A stretch of DNA of 64,000 nt from NCBI GenBank assembly GCA_965208835.1, contig OZ242358.1, positions 3,200,001 through 3,264,000 on the forward strand, given 5' to 3'. The translations under genes were made by a program, and so were the position numbers. Origin of the DNA: Candidatus Latescibacterota bacterium (GTDB lineage: Bacteria; Latescibacterota; UBA2968; GCA-2709665). Below are positions 50,258-61,203 of the stretch, piece after piece (position 1 is the stretch's first letter; the number at the start of each line of letters is the position of its first letter). Below the pieces are notes generated by a model that was given only the letters and a program-made list of their open reading frames with translations, searched no databases and was not told the DNA's origin.

Positions 50258-50460
50258 GGGTTGAGGTGAGACGGAAGACAGTAGAAGAAATGCGGTTAGA
50301 CGGGAGACGTGAGCAGGTAGATGAAATCAATGCCCGGTATGTTTTTCCTCGTTGCCCCCTGCAAGTGAAGAAACCTCACAAGACAGTCAATCTCTTCCGT
50401 CTCCCGTCTTGCGTCTACCCGCCTTTTGGCTGACGGCTGAAAGCTGGCAGCTGCTTCTGC
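50258..50460 (+). repeat. Dispersed structured repeat family A, copy 5
   Basis: GATGAAATCAATGCCCGGTATG...TTGCCCCCTGCAAGTGAAGAAACCTCACAAGACAG; CTTTTGGCTGACGGCTGA tail shared with copy 1. Confidence 0.8.
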
Positions 50461-51124: not shown

Positions 51125-51415
51125 AGTCAAATTGGCCACAAAGAGCATGATTGCGGGTAGAGGGTAAACCAAAAGCGGGTAGACGGGAGCCGGTAGAAGA
51201 AACGCGGGGAGACGTTAGAGGGAAGACGGTAGATGAAGTCCTTGCCCGATATTTCGTAACTTCTCGCCTTCGGCCCGAAAAGAACCCTCACAAGTCAGGA
51301 AATCTCTCCCGTCTTGCGTCTCCCCTCTCACCAGGTGGTGGGGCGGGGTGTGGTCCTCTCCCCCTCTCCCGTCTTACGTCTCACCCGGTGGTCGGGCGGC
51401 GGGGGGAGAGATGAC
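51125..51415 (+). repeat. Dispersed structured repeat family A, copy 6
   Basis: GATGAAGTCCTTGCCCGAT...GCCTTCGGCCCGAAAAGAACCCTCACAAGTCAGGAAATCTCTCCCGTCTTGCGTCT. Confidence 0.8.
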
Positions 51416-52410: not shown

Positions 52411-52638
52411 AGCACGCAATCAGATTGTCGATTATCTATCGATCCGCTTCGAACGCCAGGTCGACGGGAAATTTGTCACGTGCGAACCGTCCGTCCTCAG
52501 CCGGGTTGTCACCTGCCGCATCGTTGCCATATAAAAACGTAAGGAATCACACTCATATACGCAGGTACGAATCAGGTGTCAAGGTCAATTCCCCGAATGC
52601 GCCGCCATTTTTGCGGCTGCTTTCCAGCTTCCGTTTAC

Positions 52639-52667
52639 TTGACGAAGCCGATCGTTTCGTGTATACT
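52639..52667 (+). promoter_or_regulatory. Sigma-70 promoter for the leader peptide/lipoprotein/TonB locus
   Basis: TTGACG-N17-TATACT, 48 nt before ATG 52715. Confidence 0.7.
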
Positions 52668-52714
52668 ACCAATTGAAATCCTGTAGGTTCTGTGTTCTTC
52701 CGGAGAAGGTAAGG

Positions 52715-53218
52715 ATGTTTTCGCCCTTCAGACGGCTTCATCCGGTTGTCGTTTTCGCCCTTGCAATATTCGCGGGATACGTTGCGGTCTTTCTACTTGC
52801 CGCCTTCGCCGGACACGATCACGAACAGCAAGGTCACGATCATGAATGTGCTGTCTGCGCCTGGTTCGGCAACCTGAGCATCATTCTGCCGGCAGTGCTG
52901 GTGCTGCAACTTTGCTTTCTGTATTTCAGGCAGGGTTATTTCTCGTTCCGTTCCCCGCACTCTTTCCTCTTTCTGCCGGAAGGACGCGCGTCCCGTGTCC
53001 TGAACCATTTCGGTGTCCTGTCCCGGAAATTTCTCACCATTCGACTGCCGATTCATCCCGTTTCGCTACGTTCCCCTCGCTCGAATCCGCGCGTGCAGAA
53101 GTGGGGCTCGGTTCTGCACGCGGGTAGACTCTCGGGATTGGGTATCGTGCATTCGCGCCCCTCTCCGGGACACGCTACATCCACAACGCCAGATGACCGG
53201 CCCGGCGGATTTGCCTGA
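52715..53218 (+). pseudogene. DUF2946-like leader peptide copy 1, RAPP motif lost by frameshift
   Basis: TM helix, HDHEQQGHDHECAVC, then EGRA|SRVL; copy 2 has EGRAPPVS*. TCCC replaces CCTCCT, so TGA 53001-53003 is out of frame. Confidence 0.75.
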
Positions 53219-53306
53219 CGGCACAACCGCAGTTCGTCTGCCATACTGGCGGATGTTCATGCAATTTTCGGGGCGAAGTGACGTATAGGCACACTGGAGT
53301 ACTTTA
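53081..53306 (+). promoter_or_regulatory. Conserved structured 5' leader, copy 1
   Basis: Homologous to 55566-55805 and more distantly 58410-58660; 11-bp stem CGCGTGCAGAA/TTCTGCACGCG at 53090-53122. Confidence 0.6.
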
Positions 53307-54572
53307 ATGTTCAGCATGCTGAAGTTGAAGACATCCCTTCGCTGGATTGTGACGGCGGCGGTTTTTGCCGTGTTCGCGTCCGGTTGTGGTAAAGAAGACC
53401 CCATCACGCAGCAGGAAGAGCATTACGAAGCCGAAGGCCTCGTCCTCCTCGACTCCGGCGAGCGGTTCTTTCGTTATTTCCAGGGCAGGATCGACTCGGG
53501 CGAAGGCAGAGCGGAAATCCTGGCGGTCGCTCACGGCGAAGTCACCAGCAAGTGGAGCATTCGCTTCCTGGACAAAGACGGAAACGAAATGGCGCCCCCC
53601 ACCGGCGAGGGCTTCAGTTTCACGTGGGAGATCGCGGACACGTCAATCGTGGAGGTCGTCCAGGACGCGGGGGAAGCGGGTAAATTCGTCTTCGCCCTGC
53701 GCGGCCTCGAAGATGGCGAAACCACCATCAAGCTTCAGATTTCGCACGAGGGGCACATCGACTTCACCACGGTGCCGCTCCCGGTGTACGTGGTAGAAGA
53801 GCACTCGTCCCATTTCAATGCGGAAGGGCTTGTCATCATCGAATCCGGCGTTCGATTCTTTCGCTATTTCCAGGGCGAGATCGACTCGGGCGAAGGTCGG
53901 GCATCGGAACTCACGGCCCCAATTGGCCTGACGCCTCACTGGCGCATCATGTTTCTGGACGAACACGGCGATGAAAAGGACCCGCCGGACGATCCGGTAT
54001 TCACGTTGGGCTGGACCATTGCCAACCCCGACGTTCTCGAAGTCGTTCAGGACGAGGGCGACGAAGGTTCATTCGAGTTTCACCTGCGCGGCTTGCAGGA
54101 GGGCCAAACCACGATTGTATTCGAAGTCTGGCACGAAGGGCACGTTGACTACACCACACGACCCATTCCCGTACACGTGGAGTCACAGGAGGGCCAGCAC
54201 GGCGAACCCGTGGGCGTTCGGCTTAAGGAAGAAGACAGTGACGAGTTGCTTACACAGGCGCCGGTTAAGGGAGAAGGCGAAGCCACCGAGGCCCTGACCG
54301 TTGCCGTAGGCGACACAACCGACCACGTCGCGACATTCTTCTTTGACGAAGACGACGTTGAATTCCAGCCGGAAGCGCCCGATCACACGCTGGGCATCGC
54401 GGTGGCCGACACCTCGCTGCTCGCCATCGATCCGCCCGCAGCGCCCGAATACTGGGCGTTCAGACTCATCGGCAAGAAAGCGGGCACGACCACCATTACG
54501 CTTTCCATTTTACACGACGGCGAGGCGGAGGACGAATTCGCGCCCATTTCGGTAGCAATCACCGCACAATAG
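53307..54572 (+). CDS. His/acidic-rich lipoprotein with three ~125-aa repeated domains, putative metal-binding
   Basis: FASGC lipobox; repeated AEGLV..RFFRYFQG..H(E/D)GHxD(F/Y)T.P.PV; upstream of a TonB receptor. Confidence 0.85.
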   Translation: MFSMLKLKTSLRWIVTAAVFAVFASGCGKEDPITQQEEHYEAEGLVLLDSGERFFRYFQGRIDSGEGRAEILAVAHGEVTSKWSIRFLDKDGNEMAPPTGEGFSFTWEIADTSIVEVVQDAGEAGKFVFALRGLEDGETTIKLQISHEGHIDFTTVPLPVYVVEEHSSHFNAEGLVIIESGVRFFRYFQGEIDSGEGRASELTAPIGLTPHWRIMFLDEHGDEKDPPDDPVFTLGWTIANPDVLEVVQDEGDEGSFEFHLRGLQEGQTTIVFEVWHEGHVDYTTRPIPVHVESQEGQHGEPVGVRLKEEDSDELLTQAPVKGEGEATEALTVAVGDTTDHVATFFFDEDDVEFQPEAPDHTLGIAVADTSLLAIDPPAAPEYWAFRLIGKKAGTTTITLSILHDGEAEDEFAPISVAITAQ

Positions 54573-54597
54573 CAGGAAACGTGGGGAAGGGTTGGTT

Positions 54598-54662
54598 CTA
54601 GCAGTCCGTTAATAAAGTCGCTCTCCAGGAAGCCTGGATGGGCTTTTTCAACGGGCTGCCAG
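54598..54662. mobile_element. Minimal MITE made of two IS5-like inverted ends
   Basis: CTAGCAGTCCGTTAATAAAGTC vs reverse complement CTGGCAGCCCGTTGAAAAAGCC; absent from the paralogous site near 58210. Confidence 0.6.
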
Positions 54663-54938
54663 CCCTCCCTCCCTCTGCAACGTCGGAGTACATTGCAGAT
54701 GACTCACGTATACAGGATAAGGCTTTTGCCCGGATTGTCTGCCTGATCACCGAGCCTGGCAGGCGGCCCTCACAATCTACAACCTGCCGGACCGACGGGT
54801 CCGTGTTCCTGTACGGGATCACCAGAACCCTGGCCGGTACGAGGTCCTGCGGGTCGAACGGAACGGGTTCGGAATTTACGTTTCCGGTATTTTATGGCTG
54901 TATCCAGGTTCGTTTTGCGCTCATCTGGAGACCGCAGG

Positions 54939-55235
54939 ATGTCTTTTTCCTCCCGACGGATTCACCCGGTTGTCGTTATCGCGCTGGTGATATTCGCGGC
55001 CTACCTGGCGGTATTCCTGCTTGCCGCGTTCCCCGAACACGATCATAATCAACCATGTCACGATCACGATCAACCATGTGCCGTCTGCGGCTGGTTCAAC
55101 AACCTGAGCATCATTCTGCCGGCAGTGCTGGTGCTGCAACTTTGCTTTCTGTATTTCAGGCAGGGTTTTTTCTCGTTCCGTTCCCCGCACTATACCCTCC
55201 TTCTGCCGGAAGGACGCGCGCCTCCTGTGTCCTGA
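54939..55235 (+). CDS. DUF2946-like leader peptide copy 2, intact (His-rich, CxxC, C-terminal RAPP)
   Basis: TM helix, HDHNQPCHDHDQPCAVC, hydrophobic stretch, EGRAPPVS*. Confidence 0.8.
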   Translation: MSFSSRRIHPVVVIALVIFAAYLAVFLLAAFPEHDHNQPCHDHDQPCAVCGWFNNLSIILPAVLVLQLCFLYFRQGFFSFRSPHYTLLLPEGRAPPVS

Positions 55236-55302
55236 ACCATCCTGGTGTCATGTCCCGTAAATTTCTCACCATTCGACTGCCGATTCATCCCGTCTCGCTG
55301 AA

Positions 55303-55470
55303 ACGTGGTCATTGAGCTTGTCGAAATGCCCGCGTTTCAATATCCGTCGTTGGTTAATCTATATCCCTTCGCCGACCCTTCGACAAGCTCAGGGAGCGGC
55401 TCAGGTCTCACCCGCTGGTTCCTGAGCCTGTCGAAGGATGCGAGCCGGGCGACTAAGCTGTCGAATTCAG
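55303..55470. repeat. REP-like cluster (TGAGCTTGTCGAA / TTCGACAAGCTCA)
   Basis: TGAGCTTGTCGAA, CCTTCGACAAGCTCAGG, CCTGAGCCTGTCGAAGG; absent from copy 1. Confidence 0.65.
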
Positions 55471-55565
55471 GCAACCTATTTCCGGGACAGAACACCGGCG
55501 TGTCTTCCTGACACGTCTTCCGTACTTCCAGATTTTTTCAAACAGGTCATTCCAGGTCGGCCCTG

Positions 55566-55805
55566 GCTCGAATCCGCGCGTGCAGAAGCGTGGATCGGTT
55601 CTGCACGCGGGTAGACTCTCGGGATTGGGCAAAGCGCATTCCCGCCCCTCTCCGGGTCAGTCGACACCCGTATCGCCGGATGACCGGCCCAACGGGTTTG
55701 CCTGTCGGCAACTTGCCGGCACAACCGCAGTTCGTCTGCCACGCGGGCGGATGTTCATGATATTTTTAGGGGCGAAGTGAGATTCCAGTACACAGGAGAA
55801 CATTA
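55566..55805 (+). promoter_or_regulatory. Conserved structured 5' leader, copy 2
   Basis: Same 11-bp stem at 55577-55609 with a different loop. Confidence 0.6.
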
Positions 55806-58184
55806 ATGTTCAGCATGCTGAAGATGAAAACATACCATCACTGGATTGCAACAGCGGCGGTTCTTGCCGTGTTCCTGTCCGGTTGTGGAAAAGAAGACCC
55901 CATTACGCAACAGGAAGAGCATTATGAAGCCGAAGGCCTCGTCCTTCTCGACGGAGGCCAGCGGTTCTTCCGGTATTTCCAGGGCAGGATCGACTCGGGG
56001 GACGGCCGTGCGGAAGCCCTGGAGGTCGGTCACGGCGAAGTCACCAGCAAGTGGAGCATCCGCTTCCTGGACAGGGAAGGCAACGAAATGGCGCCCCCCA
56101 CCGGCGAGGGTTTCAGCTTCACGTGGGAAATTGCGGACACGTCGATTGTGGAAGTCGTTCAGGACGCGAGCGAAGTGGGCAAATTCGTCTTCGCCCTGCG
56201 CGGCCTCAAAGATGGTGAAACCACCATCAAGCTTCAGATTGCACACGAAGGACACATCGACTTCACCACGGTGCCGCTGCCGGTACACGTGGGAGGAGAG
56301 TTCGAGGCGGAAGGGCTCGTCATTATCGAATCCGGCGTTCGATTCTTCCGTTACTTCCAGGGCGAAATCGACTCTGGCGACGGTCGGGTATCGGAACTCA
56401 CGGCGCCGGTTGGCATGACGCCCCACTGGCGCATCATGTTTCTGGATGAAAACGGCGATGAAATAGATCCGCCGGAGGATCCCGAATTCACGTTCGGCTG
56501 GACCATCGCCGACCCCGACGTGGTCGAAGTCGTTCAAGACGAGGGCGACGAGGGTTTATTTGAGTTCCACCTGCGCGGCTTGAAGGGGGGCGAAACCACC
56601 ATCGTGTTGAAGGTCGAACACGACGGACACACGGATTTCAGCACCAAACCCATTCCCGTCCACGTGGAAGAAGAGTTCGCGGCGGAAGGGCTTGTCCTCA
56701 TCGAATCCGGCGTTCGATTCTTCCGTTACTTCCAGGGCGAAATCGACTCTGGCGACGGTCGGGTATCGGAACTCGAAGTACCGGTCGGCCTGACGCCACA
56801 CTGGGGCATCAAGTTTCTGGACGAAAACGGCGATGAAATAGATCCGCCGGACGATCCGGAGTTCACGTTGGGCTGGACCATCGCCGATCCCAACGTGCTA
56901 GAAGTCGTTCAGGACGAGGGCGACGAGGGTTCTTTCGAGTTTCACCTGCGCGGCTTGAAGGGGGGCGAAACCACCATCGTGTTGAAGGTCGAACACGACG
57001 GACACACGGATTTCAGCACCAAACCCATTCCCGTGCACGTGGAAGAAGAGTTCGCGGCGGAAGGGCTTGTTCTCATCGAATCCGGCGTTCGATTCTTCCG
57101 TTACTTCCAGGGCGAAATCGACTCTGGCGACGGTCGGGTTTCGGAACTCGAAGTACCGGTCGGCCTGACGCCACACTGGGGCATCAAGTTTCTGGACGAA
57201 AACGGCGATGAAATAGATCCGCCGGACGATCCGGAGTTCACGTTGGGCTGGACCATTGCCGATCCCAGCGTGCTCGAAGTCGTCCAGGACGCGGGCGACG
57301 AGGGTTCTTTCGAGTTCCATCTGCGTGGCTTGCAGAAGGGCGAGACCACCATCGTGTTGAAGGTCGACCACGATGGACACACGGATTTCACCACCAAACC
57401 CATTCCCGTGCACGTGGAAGAAGAGTTCGCGGCGGAAGGGCTTGTTCTCATCGAATCCGGCGTTCGATTCTTCCGTTACTTCCAGGGCGAAATCGACTCT
57501 GGCAACGGTCGGGTATCGGAACTCGATGTACCGATCGGCCTGACGCCGCACTGGCGCATCAAGTTTCTTGACGAAAACGGCGATGAAATCGACCCGCCGG
57601 AGGATCCGGAGTTCACGTTCGGCTGGACCATTGCCGACCCCAACGTACTCGAAGTCGTCCAGGACGCGGGCGACGAGGGTTCTTTCGAGTTCCACCTGCG
57701 CGGCTTGCAGGAGGGCGAAACCACGATTGTATTCGAAGTCAGACACGATGGGCACGTTGACTATATGACACAGCCCATTCACGTACACGTGGAGGCACAG
57801 GAGGGTCAACACGAGGACCCCGTTGGTGTGCGGCTTAAGGATGAAGACAGCGACGACGTTCTCACCCAGGCGCCGCTGAAGGGAGAAGGCAATGCTACCG
57901 AGGATCTGACGGTTGCCGCAGGTGATTCGACCGACCACATCGTGGCGTTCTTCTTTGACGAACACGACGTGGAATTCCAGCCGGAGGCGCCCGACCACAC
58001 GCTGGGCATCGCGGTGGCCGACACCTCGTTGCTCGCCATCGATCCGCCTGTAGCGCCCGAATACTGGGCCTTCAGACTCATTGGCAAGAAAGCTGGTACC
58101 ACCTCAATCACCCTTTCCATTCTCCACGACGGCGAGACGGAAGAAGAATTCGCGCCGATATCGGTGGAGATCACCGCACCATAG
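55806..58184 (+). CDS. His/acidic-rich lipoprotein with six repeated domains; paralog of 53307-54572
   Basis: FLSGC lipobox; 375-nt tandem units beginning at 56301, 56676, 57051 and 57426. Confidence 0.88.
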   Translation: MFSMLKMKTYHHWIATAAVLAVFLSGCGKEDPITQQEEHYEAEGLVLLDGGQRFFRYFQGRIDSGDGRAEALEVGHGEVTSKWSIRFLDREGNEMAPPTGEGFSFTWEIADTSIVEVVQDASEVGKFVFALRGLKDGETTIKLQIAHEGHIDFTTVPLPVHVGGEFEAEGLVIIESGVRFFRYFQGEIDSGDGRVSELTAPVGMTPHWRIMFLDENGDEIDPPEDPEFTFGWTIADPDVVEVVQDEGDEGLFEFHLRGLKGGETTIVLKVEHDGHTDFSTKPIPVHVEEEFAAEGLVLIESGVRFFRYFQGEIDSGDGRVSELEVPVGLTPHWGIKFLDENGDEIDPPDDPEFTLGWTIADPNVLEVVQDEGDEGSFEFHLRGLKGGETTIVLKVEHDGHTDFSTKPIPVHVEEEFAAEGLVLIESGVRFFRYFQGEIDSGDGRVSELEVPVGLTPHWGIKFLDENGDEIDPPDDPEFTLGWTIADPSVLEVVQDAGDEGSFEFHLRGLQKGETTIVLKVDHDGHTDFTTKPIPVHVEEEFAAEGLVLIESGVRFFRYFQGEIDSGNGRVSELDVPIGLTPHWRIKFLDENGDEIDPPEDPEFTFGWTIADPNVLEVVQDAGDEGSFEFHLRGLQEGETTIVFEVRHDGHVDYMTQPIHVHVEAQEGQHEDPVGVRLKDEDSDDVLTQAPLKGEGNATEDLTVAAGDSTDHIVAFFFDEHDVEFQPEAPDHTLGIAVADTSLLAIDPPVAPEYWAFRLIGKKAGTTSITLSILHDGETEEEFAPISVEITAP
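56301..57791 (+). repeat. Four near-identical 375-bp intragenic tandem repeats
   Basis: Exact 375-nt period of ATCGAATCCGGCGTTCGATTCTTCCGTTACTTCCAGGGCGAAATCGACTCTGGC. Confidence 0.92.
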
Positions 58185-58660
58185 CTGGAAGCACGGCGGG
58201 AGGGCGAGAACCGCCCTCCCGCCTGCTGCAACGTCTGAAAACTCTGCAGATAGATGAACTACACAGGATGAGGCTTCTGCCCGGATTGTCGGCCTGATGC
58301 CCGAGCCCGCCAGGCGGACCTCACAATTTTCAACCTGCCGGGCCGACGGGTCCGGATTCTGGTACGGGATCAACAGAGCGGGGCCGGCACGACGTCCTGG
58401 TCTTTTAAATCAGGTCATTCCAGGTCGGCCCCGACTCGATCAGAAATGCGGCACGGATCGACGCGGATGGACCCTTGGGACCGCGTATCGCGGATTCCCG
58501 CCCGTCGTGGGTTCAGGCTACGTCCGCAAGTGCGGGTAATCCGCCCGGAAATCTGGCATTTCGCCAACATACCGGCGAATCTGCGGTTCGTTCACTACGT
58601 CGGCGGATGCTCACGATTGATTCGGAGCGAAATGAGATTCCGGTACACTGGAGAAAAATA

Positions 58661-60901
58661 ATGTCCAGCACACTTAAAGTGAAGACATCCAGTCAATTGA
58701 TTGCAACAGCGGCGCTCGCGTTGTTGTCAATGGTCTGTCTCGCGGGTATCAGCTCGGCAAATCAGGCCGTGTTGATCGAAGGGTATGTCTTCGACGGCGA
58801 AACCGGACTGCCCGTCAGAAATGTGAACGTCCTCGCCGCGGATCACGCCGCGCGCGCGTCTACGGACGGAAAAGGCCGGTTCGTGCTCCAACTGTCTCCT
58901 GGTGCTTATCGGCTGTCACTTACGCACGTCGGCTATCGGGAAACGCGCCACGAACTGAACATCTCAAGCGCCAGGCATCCCGTTGTCTATCTGGAACTGG
59001 CGCGACTGGACCACAAGCTGGATCCCATCGACGTTGTGGCCAGACGCGCTGAAACCCGATTTGAAGAACTGCATGAGGCCACCCGTGTGCTTTCTGGCGA
59101 CGAACTCAGGAAGAAATACAGCATCACCCTGGCCGAGACCATGAAGAACGAACTCGGCGTTGCCATCCGAAGCATGGGACCGGCGCCGGCCCGCCCCGTT
59201 ATCCGCGGGCTCAGCGGCGACCGTGTACAGATCAACGTCGACGGGATTCAGTCTCAGGATCTTTCGGCAACGTCGGCCGATCACGCGGTAACCGTCGAGA
59301 CTTTCAACGCGGAACGCCTGGAAATCATCCGCGGACCCCGCACGCTGCTGCACACGGCCACGGCCGGCGGCGGTGTAATCAACGTCGTCAAGCACAAGAT
59401 CCCTGAGACCCGCCCGAAGCGCTTCTTCGGGAGCGTGGGCGCCTACGGAGAAACGGCGAACCGCGGATATTTCTCGTCCGCCGCCCTAACCGCGCCCGTG
59501 GGGCCGCTCGCGTTGCACGCCGAGTCCACGTACCGGGATACAAGGGACATCCGGACCCCGGTCGGCCGGCTTGCCAACACGCCCATCAACACCCGCACAC
59601 ATGCACTCGGCGTTTCCTACGCGGGCGAACGGGGATACGTCGGCGCTTCTTTCGACCAGTTCGATACTCATTACGGCATTCCCGGCGGATTCATCGGCGC
59701 GCATCCCAACGGCGCGGACCTCGATATCATGCGCCGGGTCTTCGATGGGAGGGCTGTCTATCGGTTCGACGGCGGGACGGCAGACAGAATCGAGGCAGGC
59801 TTCACGAGGACCTATTACTACCACGTTGAGTACGAATCAAGCGGCAGTATCGGATCCGAGTTCCTTTTTCATGACCACAGCGGCGATCTCAAACTCTACC
59901 TGAACTCGGGAAACAAGGAGCAAAACACCGTTCTCACCGCCGGCTTTGAACACCGCGATCTCAAGCTGGGCGGTTTTGTCTTCACCCCGCCCACGCGCAA
60001 GCAGGACGTCAACTTCGGGCTGTATCACGAGACTATCTATCGCAATATCGAACTACAGGTCGCGACCCGTTACACCTATACCACCTTCGACCCGCGCCTG
60101 GAGGCGTTCTCCAACGCGAGCCTGGATGTAGACCGCACCTTCCATACATGGTCCACCGCATTCAGCCCGCTATTGCCCATTACCGACCAGTTGACCGCGG
60201 GCTTCAGCCTCAACCGCTCCCAGCGCGCGCCCACCATCGAGGAGCTCTACAACGAGGGACCGCACCTTGCCGCTTACACCTTTGAGAAGGGCAACGTCGA
60301 ACTCAATGCCGAACGCAGTTTCGGCGCAGAGGCATTCTTCCACTACCTGCGGCCGGGATTCGACCTGGTCTTCACGGGATTCTGGAACGAATTCGGCAAT
60401 TACATTGCGCCGCGAAATACGGGAGAAATCAACTGGTCTCAGCTACTTCCGATCTACGCCGCGGAAGGTATAGGCGCGAGAATGACGGGCGTGGAATCCC
60501 ACCTGAAATGGCGCCCGAACGCGCGATTGGAGCTGGAGATGAAACTGAGCCATGTGCGCGGTGAAAACCAGGACGACGGTACGCCCCTGCCCGAAATGCC
60601 GCCGCTCAAGTTCGTGGGCAGCGCAACCTACAGGCACCCCTGGCTTACCGGCGGCGGAACCGTGGAGTGGGCCGCGGGGCAGAACCGCGTGGATACCTAC
60701 GAAGACCCTACCGCCGGTTATTCCATCTTCGGCGTTTACGTACAGCGGGATTTCCAAACGAACCACGCCCGCCACAGCTTTATCCTTTCTCTCGAGAATC
60801 TTCTCGACACGGAGTACCGCAACCACCTGTCTCGCATCCGGTCCGTGATGCCTGAAACAGGCAGGAGTCTGAAGTTGAACTACAAAATGTATTTCTTTTA
60901 A
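58661..60901 (+). CDS. TonB-dependent receptor, ZnuD-like metal-uptake group
   Basis: N-terminal extension domain, GPAPARPVIRGLSGDRV, SADHAV, EIIRGP, RAPTIEELYNEGPH, YRNHLS, C-terminal F; GGAG RBS. Confidence 0.92.
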   Translation: MSSTLKVKTSSQLIATAALALLSMVCLAGISSANQAVLIEGYVFDGETGLPVRNVNVLAADHAARASTDGKGRFVLQLSPGAYRLSLTHVGYRETRHELNISSARHPVVYLELARLDHKLDPIDVVARRAETRFEELHEATRVLSGDELRKKYSITLAETMKNELGVAIRSMGPAPARPVIRGLSGDRVQINVDGIQSQDLSATSADHAVTVETFNAERLEIIRGPRTLLHTATAGGGVINVVKHKIPETRPKRFFGSVGAYGETANRGYFSSAALTAPVGPLALHAESTYRDTRDIRTPVGRLANTPINTRTHALGVSYAGERGYVGASFDQFDTHYGIPGGFIGAHPNGADLDIMRRVFDGRAVYRFDGGTADRIEAGFTRTYYYHVEYESSGSIGSEFLFHDHSGDLKLYLNSGNKEQNTVLTAGFEHRDLKLGGFVFTPPTRKQDVNFGLYHETIYRNIELQVATRYTYTTFDPRLEAFSNASLDVDRTFHTWSTAFSPLLPITDQLTAGFSLNRSQRAPTIEELYNEGPHLAAYTFEKGNVELNAERSFGAEAFFHYLRPGFDLVFTGFWNEFGNYIAPRNTGEINWSQLLPIYAAEGIGARMTGVESHLKWRPNARLELEMKLSHVRGENQDDGTPLPEMPPLKFVGSATYRHPWLTGGGTVEWAAGQNRVDTYEDPTAGYSIFGVYVQRDFQTNHARHSFILSLENLLDTEYRNHLSRIRSVMPETGRSLKLNYKMYFF

Positions 60902-60934
60902 TGTCCACTCGCCGTCGACGGAAAGACAAATCAA

Positions 60935-60977
60935 CAGCCCCGTGTCAGTCGTTATACACGGGGCTGGCTTTTTTTTT
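60935..60977 (+). terminator. Rho-independent terminator
   Basis: CAGCCCCGTGT-loop-ACACGGGGCTG followed by GC and T9. Confidence 0.85.
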
Positions 60978-61203
60978 GGTCTGATCGTCGAACCCTGGCA
61001 GCATACCAACGGCGAAAAAACTACTCGTATTCCAGGCTCTCAGCACGCCGTTCCGCATCCCTGCCCGACATCGCCCGCCGCATCACGCGTTCCACAACAC
61101 GTGGAAACCAGGTACCCCGAACAACCGCCGTACCGTTTCCGAAACCCGGGACAAGCCGACGTTTTCTCTTACCGATGCCCCGAAGGATGACCTCCGGCGA
61201 TAA

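Follow-up and report, generated by a model that had tools for sequence, protein, structure and literature searches.

Arrest of the ribosome at a C-terminal RAPP motif has been demonstrated in vitro for CruR, and passages of the same study place upstream open reading frames (uORFs) with RAPP or RGPP ahead of TonB-dependent receptors throughout Gram-negative bacteria (PMC12992588). The output of CruR is described as Rho-dependent termination (PMC9426467). For CruR and the DUF2946 peptides, the distance from CxxC to RAPP is given as 45 ± 1-2 residues, and a deletion of two residues is reported as tolerated in CruR. Surveys count 5,334 CutF-like proteins, list TonB-like proteins and proteins with lipoprotein signals among their neighbours and suggest that copper is not what all of them sense (PMC9973294, bioRxiv 2025.02.05.636593). 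Here we describe a related operon in a 64,000-nucleotide stretch of DNA from Candidatus Latescibacterota bacterium (contig OZ242358.1, positions 3,200,001 to 3,264,000; hereafter the window). The operon combines small CxxC peptides, lipoproteins and a TonB-dependent receptor, and an earlier annotation of the window (the original prediction) had proposed that it scavenges metal under the control of arrest leader peptides.

On balance we lean towards reading the operon as a whole as a zinc-scavenging system with CruR/CutF-like gates, a ZnuD-type receptor and lipoproteins that bear a three-histidine site. By analogy, the system is probably a zinc version of CruR and CutF, and the operon, with its zinc-type receptor and histidine-bearing surface lipoproteins, a probable zinc-import operon. 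In the mechanism that we propose, the receptor would import zinc, and the Ig-like surface lipoproteins would gather it, their three-histidine site replacing the His-rich loop of ZnuD, which is absent here. Across the family, each gene or gene pair would stand behind one CruR/CutF-like leader. When metal is scarce, the leaders probably stall the ribosome at R[A/S/G]PP, where it would cover the last codons of the peptide and either free the start region of the next gene or shield a Rho site, so that uptake would be on. Metal bound to the His/Cys cluster, one tunnel length upstream, would release the stall and turn uptake off, as CruR and the pairing of the mRNA suggest. The main features are the following.

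52639..52667, + strand: sigma70-like promoter, TTGACG-17-TATACT, matching at 10 of 12 positions
52715..53218, + strand: leader peptide 1, 167 amino acids (aa), His stretch and CAVC intact, RAPP destroyed by a 2-nucleotide (nt) deletion after 52990
53307..54572, + strand: lipoprotein 1, 421 aa, three Ig-like domains, of which domains 1 and 2 carry the His and HxxH set
54939..55235, + strand: leader peptide 2, 98 aa, intact, with a hydrophobic N-segment, a His-rich loop, C47xxC50, 42 residues and then R93-A-P-P-V-S and the stop
55222..55230, + strand: Pro-Pro-Val codons of peptide 2, a 9-nt complement of the ribosome-binding region of lipoprotein 2 at 55790-55798 (duplex -20.4 kcal/mol, 4% of background)
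55806..58184, + strand: lipoprotein 2, 792 aa, six Ig-like domains in 375-nt repeats; repeats 2-5 keep HxxH and have Glu or Gly for the N-terminal His
58661..60901, + strand: ZnuD-type TonB-dependent receptor, 746 aa, in which D207, H208, E390 and H535 align with the four ZnuD ligands
about 60935..60978, + strand: intrinsic terminator, 11-bp stem and U-run (hairpin z = -3.8)

The order on the + strand is thus promoter, two leader genes with two lipoprotein genes, receptor and terminator, and the single promoter and the terminator of the original prediction both stand. A scan for promoter-like sites returned three where 3.9 were expected, which is the chance level. The -35/-10 pair and its spacing are nevertheless kept in 14 of 15 aligned upstream regions; the sole exception is window unit 2, and because only this unit has lost the pair, a single promoter for the operon fits. 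The tandem arrangement of CxxC-RAPP peptide and lipoprotein was described correctly for peptide 2 and for both lipoproteins, whereas peptide 1 has no RAPP. Another intact peptide-lipoprotein unit lies elsewhere in the genome without a receptor (G000:C1:4730979-4733013). Matching DNA with a named origin came from sponge and marine metagenomes.

The leader peptide family

Comparison of its sequences indicates that the peptide is a conserved coding gene under purifying selection. In an alignment of 40 peptides from two families, the only invariant positions are C47, C50, W52, R93, P95 and P96, and the spacing from CxxC to the arginine is 42-43 residues in 44 of 44 near relatives (42 in the window; one distant genus has 46). 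Distant members have often lost the second cysteine, while the first keeps a distance of 45-49 residues from the arginine and lies next to His-rich stretches. Nonsynonymous differences were proportionally fewer than synonymous ones in every one of the 136 pairs drawn from the window's family, and the same held for 93% of the 153 sister-family pairs, all these pairs being kin and not independent. Hydrophobic segments lie at about residues 10-30 and 55-73 of peptide 2, which also fits the rules for CutF-like proteins set out in a section of PMC9973294: a length below 150 aa (here 98), Pro-Pro no more than 15 residues from the end and a same-strand gene within 1000 nt (here 570 nt on). The CutF-like lists of that survey may include members of this family.

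An intact R[A/S/G]PP peptide stands upstream of 83 of 89 lipoprotein genes, compared with 6 of 2509 background long open reading frames (ORFs) of the window's genome. The 89 are those with enough upstream DNA, one gene having been dropped for its short flank, and some of the loci were found via the peptide; at loci chosen by the lipoprotein alone, a peptide of a looser pattern is upstream in 32 of 33. The motif is RAPP in 38 of the 83 peptides, RSPP in 28 and RGPP in 17. The original prediction expected peptide and lipoprotein to keep company, and this holds; loci commonly lacking the peptide were not seen. The peptide profile matches 53 of 168 genomes of the phylum, which is a lower bound because the profile caught 6 of the 76 genomes of the largest family in the class, where a motif search recovered the peptides. 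All 14 other genomes of the genus have at least one peptide match. Anatomy, conservation and co-occurrence are thus established, and from them we infer that the peptide is translated and stalls the ribosome.

Judged from its anatomy, the peptide resembles CruR and CutF, although it falls outside the Pfam cut-off for DUF2946. The original prediction proposed a search with that model; against the cut-off of 23.7 bits for PF11162, peptide 2 scored 11.7, and 20 of 40 members matched weakly, the best at 23.3, so that membership was not found. None of 41 genomes searched with DUF2946 had a match above the cut-off. The top DUF2946 match among the relatives (L061) lies on the opposite strand to an unrelated long ORF and was set aside as looking like chance. 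Two further observations concern the family. At L101:3388-4087, L102:4983-5673, L036:4151-5145 and L108:3069-4137, two intact arrest-type peptides follow one another without an intervening gene and precede uptake genes. A peptide of G023 (L050:10067-10297) ends in RSPP and has lost the His/CxxC segment by an in-frame deletion, and is thus a natural sensor-less variant.

Receptor, lipoproteins and the likely metal

The receptor was correctly recognized as ZnuD-like in the original prediction, since ZnuD is its closest solved relative (1e-35, compared with 3e-8 for OprC). The NCBIfam model of ZnuD (NF038289) is also its best-scoring family, at 191.6 bits, which is far under the cut-off of 950 bits. 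The buried high-affinity zinc site of ZnuD is described as D99, H100, E340 and H499 (PMC4557270). With a chain numbering offset of 14, which was worked out in this analysis, the equivalents D207, H208, E390 and H535 are kept in 19, 20, 20 and 20 of 20 receptors, respectively. The long His-rich loop 3 of ZnuD is absent: where ZnuD has about 60 residues, there are about 10 profile positions here, with one histidine in the stretch. At its N-terminus the receptor has an extra carboxypeptidase-regulatory-like domain. Some receptors in other loci have an N-terminus derived from the lipoprotein signal region, apparently via deletion of the lipoprotein gene (L108:4265-6796, L109:5977-8427 and L028:7169-9508), and the window's receptor also begins like the lipoprotein.

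The lipoproteins are acidic, as had been noted (19-21% Asp and Glu); the accompanying description as His-rich does not hold, as histidine makes up only about 4%. The 125-residue repeat is predicted as an all-beta sandwich (pLDDT 92.6), and fold searches returned generic Ig-like matches only, the best being an SbsC S-layer domain (Z 8.5, rmsd 2.7, 87 aligned). Across 48 single-domain homologues with 34% mean identity, the lipid-anchor cysteine, one glycine and three histidines are invariant; one histidine is at the start of the domain and two are in a late hairpin. This pattern suggests a three-histidine metal site, the three being presumed close in space from the Ig topology. The number of domains per lipoprotein ranges from 1 to 6, and the inner repeats of lipoprotein 2, without the first histidine, may partly serve as a stalk. 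Both lipoproteins have C-G-K-E-D at the lipobox, which fits the K-(D/E)2-like export signal described after the lipobox cysteine in surface lipoproteins of Bacteroidetes (PMC5080379), a signal that may not act in this phylum.

The lipoprotein family is large, with 615 clusters at 50% identity in a profile search, and of 168 genomes of the phylum, 97 have a member. A search with a single protein returned 8 loci with the lipoprotein in Ignavibacteria and Bacteroidota, and the nearest Atlas clusters of the domain, mostly from Ignavibacteriota and Balneolota, have no Pfam family. Pfam and NCBIfam gave partial Ig-like matches at domain level; Inhibitor_I42 and T2SS-T3SS_pil_N pass the whole-protein cut-offs by summing short stretches over the repeats. 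In a limited literature search we found no paper on this family. Separately, at L057:5201-6301 and L058:9672-12788 the domain forms the C-terminal part of larger secreted proteins that have no leader peptide, and similar fusions occur among the matches P0057, P0062, P0161 and P0175.

The original prediction held that the metal could not be read from the sequence. This is too cautious, as the conserved ZnuD ligands and the gene neighbourhoods make zinc the likely metal. Sister peptides head porin-like genes with AztC/ZnuA-like and permease genes at five loci (L096, L101, L103, L104 and L107), FolE2 at two (L098 and L105, about 0.9 and 1.4 kb away), a further receptor at one (L106) and an operon of ABC-DUF3299 type at two (L112 and L133). 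ZigA-like and ZupT-like genes are close to such loci. FolE2, COG0523 and ZnuD are described together in a Zur regulon, FolE2 and COG0523 not being exclusive to Zur (PMC11672702). In the annotated loci, a copper oxidase, chaperone or efflux gene is never first after a peptide. The conservation of the ligands is established by these comparisons; the metal, the polarity of the switch and the role of the lipoproteins we infer. At L112:4527-6242 and in most sister-family loci, next after the receptor come genes for a chlorite-dismutase-family protein and a CDF transporter.

The peptides may in places be exchanged for a repressor. Of 41 relatives searched, 21 yielded a Fur-family gene, and 16 of the 36 that bear a peptide gave no match to this family; nine of these 16 are single-contig and at least 97% complete. 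The slot immediately ahead of the ABC-DUF3299 operon is occupied by a Fur-family gene in G025, G028 and G088 and by a peptide in G030 and G087, two genomes that gave no Fur-family match. A lipoprotein-receptor operon of G106 has an upstream Fur-family gene, a perfect palindrome and only a 3' stub of the peptide. These cases are few and related, and they concern Fur-family genes with no subtype assigned. The palindrome, GATAAT-N2-ATTATC, occurs with at most one mismatch in 21 of 173 loci (including L126:6498-6511, L141:6301-6314 and L148:3299-3312), mostly just before a Fur-family gene, likewise without a subtype, that heads a COG0523 cluster. The window's promoter has no match to it with at most one mismatch, and it may not be the box of this genome's Zur-like protein; a site at 52423 with two mismatches is at chance level. 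A separate cluster in the same genome has znuCBA-like, Zur-like and ZigA-like genes (L142:3323-11092; G000:C1:4010300-4018100). We considered and rejected the idea that genomes without a Fur-family gene are unregulated, as DtxR/MntR-family matches were present in 5 of 5 genomes tested. Three such matches lie within 10 kb in the window's genome (G000:C1:2773253-2782673), and similar clusters occur in 4 of 4 relatives tested.

Possible output of the switch and state of the gates

In the sister family, the last codons and the stop of the peptide pair with the next Shine-Dalgarno sequence over 12 bp, with 92.9% of cells paired, compared with 39-51% when the alignment is slid, and in 19 of 24 loci the pairing is stronger than at 95% of background sites. 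When sister-type loci were folded, from a set of 31 hand-chosen loci, the peptide end was the predicted partner in 13 of 13, and the site opened by at least 1.8 kcal/mol on a simulated stall in 12. Another genus has a different 9-bp helix. Over 19 groups, cognate pairs average -13.1 kcal/mol, compared with -8.9 ± 0.6 for shuffled pairs, a difference part of which may come from shared base composition. CCT encodes the first Pro in 40 of 48 peptides, compared with 15.5% in Pro-Pro pairs of the window's genome. A stall would turn the next gene on whether it unmasks the start region or shields a Rho site, and the genes encode an importer; a stall is therefore expected without metal.

The window retains one of its three gates. 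Peptide 1 reads R-A-S-R-V-L at the former RAPP and stops 88 nt before lipoprotein 1. A contig from another study (X5) covers 52500-53134 without a gap and with 14 other letters, a contig from a further study (X6) covers 52908-53056 without a gap and with no other letters, and both have the same deletion; an assembly error is thus ruled out, on the strength of these two contigs. Because both share the deletion and the orthologous first peptides are intact in G006, G009 and G011, we regard it as a genuine loss in this lineage. Before the receptor stands a third leader core; comparison with G006 shows that the peptide and the leader's 5' half have been deleted at about 58400. At the promoter that precedes peptide 1, the peptide is deleted outright in G001 and G010. 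Intact C-terminal RAPP is found in peptide 2 and in the copy at C1:4730979. From their sequences, lipoprotein 1 and the receptor have lost their gates and are probably expressed without that control; in the operon of this genome an intact gate is kept only for lipoprotein 2. The unmasking and Rho models alike predict that unit 1 is now constitutive. The ribosome-binding site of unit 1 is predicted to be open by default (1.9 kcal/mol). The original prediction of a CruR/CutF-like arrest uORF before uptake genes thus finds support in the conservation, fixed spacing, purifying selection and co-occurrence of the peptide, and within the window it applies to one of three slots only.

The long conserved leader that had also been described consists in part of repeats found throughout the genome, and only the cores at 53084-53310 and 55499-55810 are specific to these units. 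In leader 1 the repeats take up about 77 nt, in leader 2 about 260 nt. The elements between the genes are as follows.

53007..53083, unstranded: dispersed intergenic repeat directly after the former stop of peptide 1, up to 83 genome copies
53084..53306, + strand: unit-specific leader core and ribosome-binding site of lipoprotein 1, with no consensus structure
54597..54666, unstranded: dispersed hairpin repeat 3' of lipoprotein 1, terminator-like by pattern, up to 62 genome copies
55237..55498, unstranded: cluster of dispersed repeats within leader 2, up to 84 genome copies
55499..55805, + strand: leader core and ribosome-binding site of lipoprotein 2
58401..58660, + strand: peptide-less third leader core before the receptor

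Several families of such intergenic repeats have 60-84 copies, and the insertions at 53007-53083, 54597-54666 and 55237-55498 are also present in G006. Two other repeated hairpin-like intergenic elements (50269-50416 and 51181-51385) flank a histidine-phosphatase-like gene. A structured RNA or riboswitch in the leader was considered and rejected: an Rfam search of the leader found no known structured RNA (best match E 2.5), and 21 aligned leaders have no consensus fold.

Several observations weigh against the zinc-scavenging reading with its peptide gates. RSPP is described as only partly permissive in ApdA and ApdP mutants; six of the 89 lipoprotein genes lack an intact peptide; and 23 of the 83 peptides of the wider family lack the second cysteine (CxxC is present in 60). 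CbiM, DmeF-like, SO_0444-like and BtuC-like genes occur in the same neighbourhoods, an OprC-like receptor lies further downstream at one locus, and a Zur-like gene lies in another part of the window's genome (132 bits; the cut-off is 167). The helix of the sister family shows a single compensatory change and does no better than shuffled controls (73-121 of 500). In the family of the window itself, a single locus out of 22, window unit 2, has cognate pairing stronger than 95% of background, and a simulated stall with a broad block opens the Shine-Dalgarno sequence by at least 2 kcal/mol in 9 of 15 loci. With a strict footprint, run on the set less three loci of family f10, window unit 2 stays closed (4.5 to 5.1 kcal/mol).

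This weakness of pairing in the window's family is one reason to consider that the same sensor acts through Rho-dependent termination of transcription, as in CruR, with one intact gate also controlling the receptor. The leaders are 300-570 nt long and have no consensus structure, the genome has a rho gene, and C and T make up 53-55 of the 81 nt that precede RAPP, a pyrimidine-rich stretch (0.4% of gene ends have 54 or more). The excess of C over G is modest, however (+8, compared with -1.3 ± 7.7), and comes partly from Phe, Leu, Ser and Pro codons, and the sister families pair clearly with different sequences; we regard a Rho output as somewhat unlikely. It is unlikely that the system senses and imports nickel, cobalt, manganese or copper instead of zinc. 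The tested relatives CruR and CutF sense copper via Cys motifs, His-only CutF-like clusters are described beside nickel and cobalt genes, CbiM, DmeF-like and MntC-like matches occur in the neighbourhoods, and the receptor scores 192 of the 950 bits that the ZnuD model asks for; yet all four zinc ligands of ZnuD are kept, FolE2, COG0523 and ZnuD co-occur in a Zur regulon, and no copper oxidase, chaperone or efflux gene comes first after a peptide in the annotated loci.

The losses in the window raise another question, namely whether the leaders are decaying in this lineage, so that the operon would be effectively constitutive and the remaining peptide a relic. Two of three gates are gone, the peptide has been deleted outright at the same promoter in two relatives and repeats have been inserted into the leaders. 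We nevertheless think decay improbable, given that peptide 2 and the unit at C1:4730979 are intact, that every other genome of the genus has a peptide match and that selection is purifying. It is very improbable that the peptide monitors membrane insertion or export capacity, like SecM, ApdA and ApdP, and not metal. A hydrophobic N-terminal segment followed by RAPP is the layout of Sec/YidC monitors, and most downstream products are exported, but the Cys/His cluster is invariant and lies at a fixed distance, and the peptide also heads FolE2, which is cytoplasmic.

Comparison with known systems

Thousands of such leaders have already been surveyed, many of them before TonB receptors, and the surveys suggest metals other than copper. 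In the literature covered, which did not extend to the supplements of the surveys, we found no experimentally tested zinc-sensing arrest leader; the tested cases concern copper. The analysis reported here adds an argument for zinc at the level of ligands, a family of three-histidine lipoproteins, a controlled count of co-occurrence, cases in which a Fur-family gene takes the peptide's place, and the finding that two of the three gates have been lost. Since one gate of the operon is intact, one frameshifted and one deleted, the window provides natural controls. The lipoprotein domain, from a large unnamed family tightly linked to ZnuD-type receptors, offers a small, well-folded object for the study of zinc gathering at the surface. 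A broader reading, which we put forward tentatively and would not yet expect to hold in full, is that portable zinc-sensing arrest leaders replace Zur in several poorly known Gram-negative phyla. They would act as a cassette for each gene, exchangeable with a Fur-family repressor (as between G030/G087 and G025/G028/G088, and in G106), and would serve a two-part importer in which the ZnuD loop has become a separate three-histidine lipoprotein of variable length. If the zinc version is true, the ribosome itself can replace a zinc repressor.

Among characterized systems, CruR (Bp2923 of Bordetella pertussis, DUF2946/PF11162) is similar in being a small CxxC uORF with a C-terminal RAPP at a fixed distance and in standing first in an operon with a TonB-dependent importer, separated by a long intergenic region. 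The peptides here differ in a spacing of 42-43 residues, compared with 45, and in scoring under the Pfam cut-off. They also differ in their company, which is a ZnuD-type receptor and neighbours typical of zinc starvation (ZnuD-like, AztC/ZnuA-like, FolE2 and ABC-DUF3299) and not copper genes, and in forming a repeated cassette for each gene, with RAPP, RSPP and RGPP variants and frequent loss of the second cysteine in distant relatives. CutF of Rhodobacter capsulatus is likewise an exported or membrane leader with a Cys/His site and a Pro-rich end, whose stalling uncovers the next ribosome-binding site. CutF, however, stalls with copper and turns detoxification on, whereas the importer here should be on without metal, and the masking strand here would be the peptide's own last codons. 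The passages of the uORF survey in PMC12992588 name neither a zinc-sensing case nor this lipoprotein.

For the uptake genes, ZnuD of Neisseria meningitidis (PDB 4RDR) is the best solved relative, and its four high-affinity zinc ligands align with those of the receptor. ZnuD is described as Zur-controlled and as having a long His-rich loop 3, whereas the receptor here lacks the loop and travels with a lipoprotein. In this respect the operon is similar to BtuG-BtuB of Bacteroides, in which a surface lipoprotein encoded beside a TonB-dependent receptor captures a scarce micronutrient; it differs from that pair in the predicted Ig-like beta-sandwich fold of its lipoprotein.

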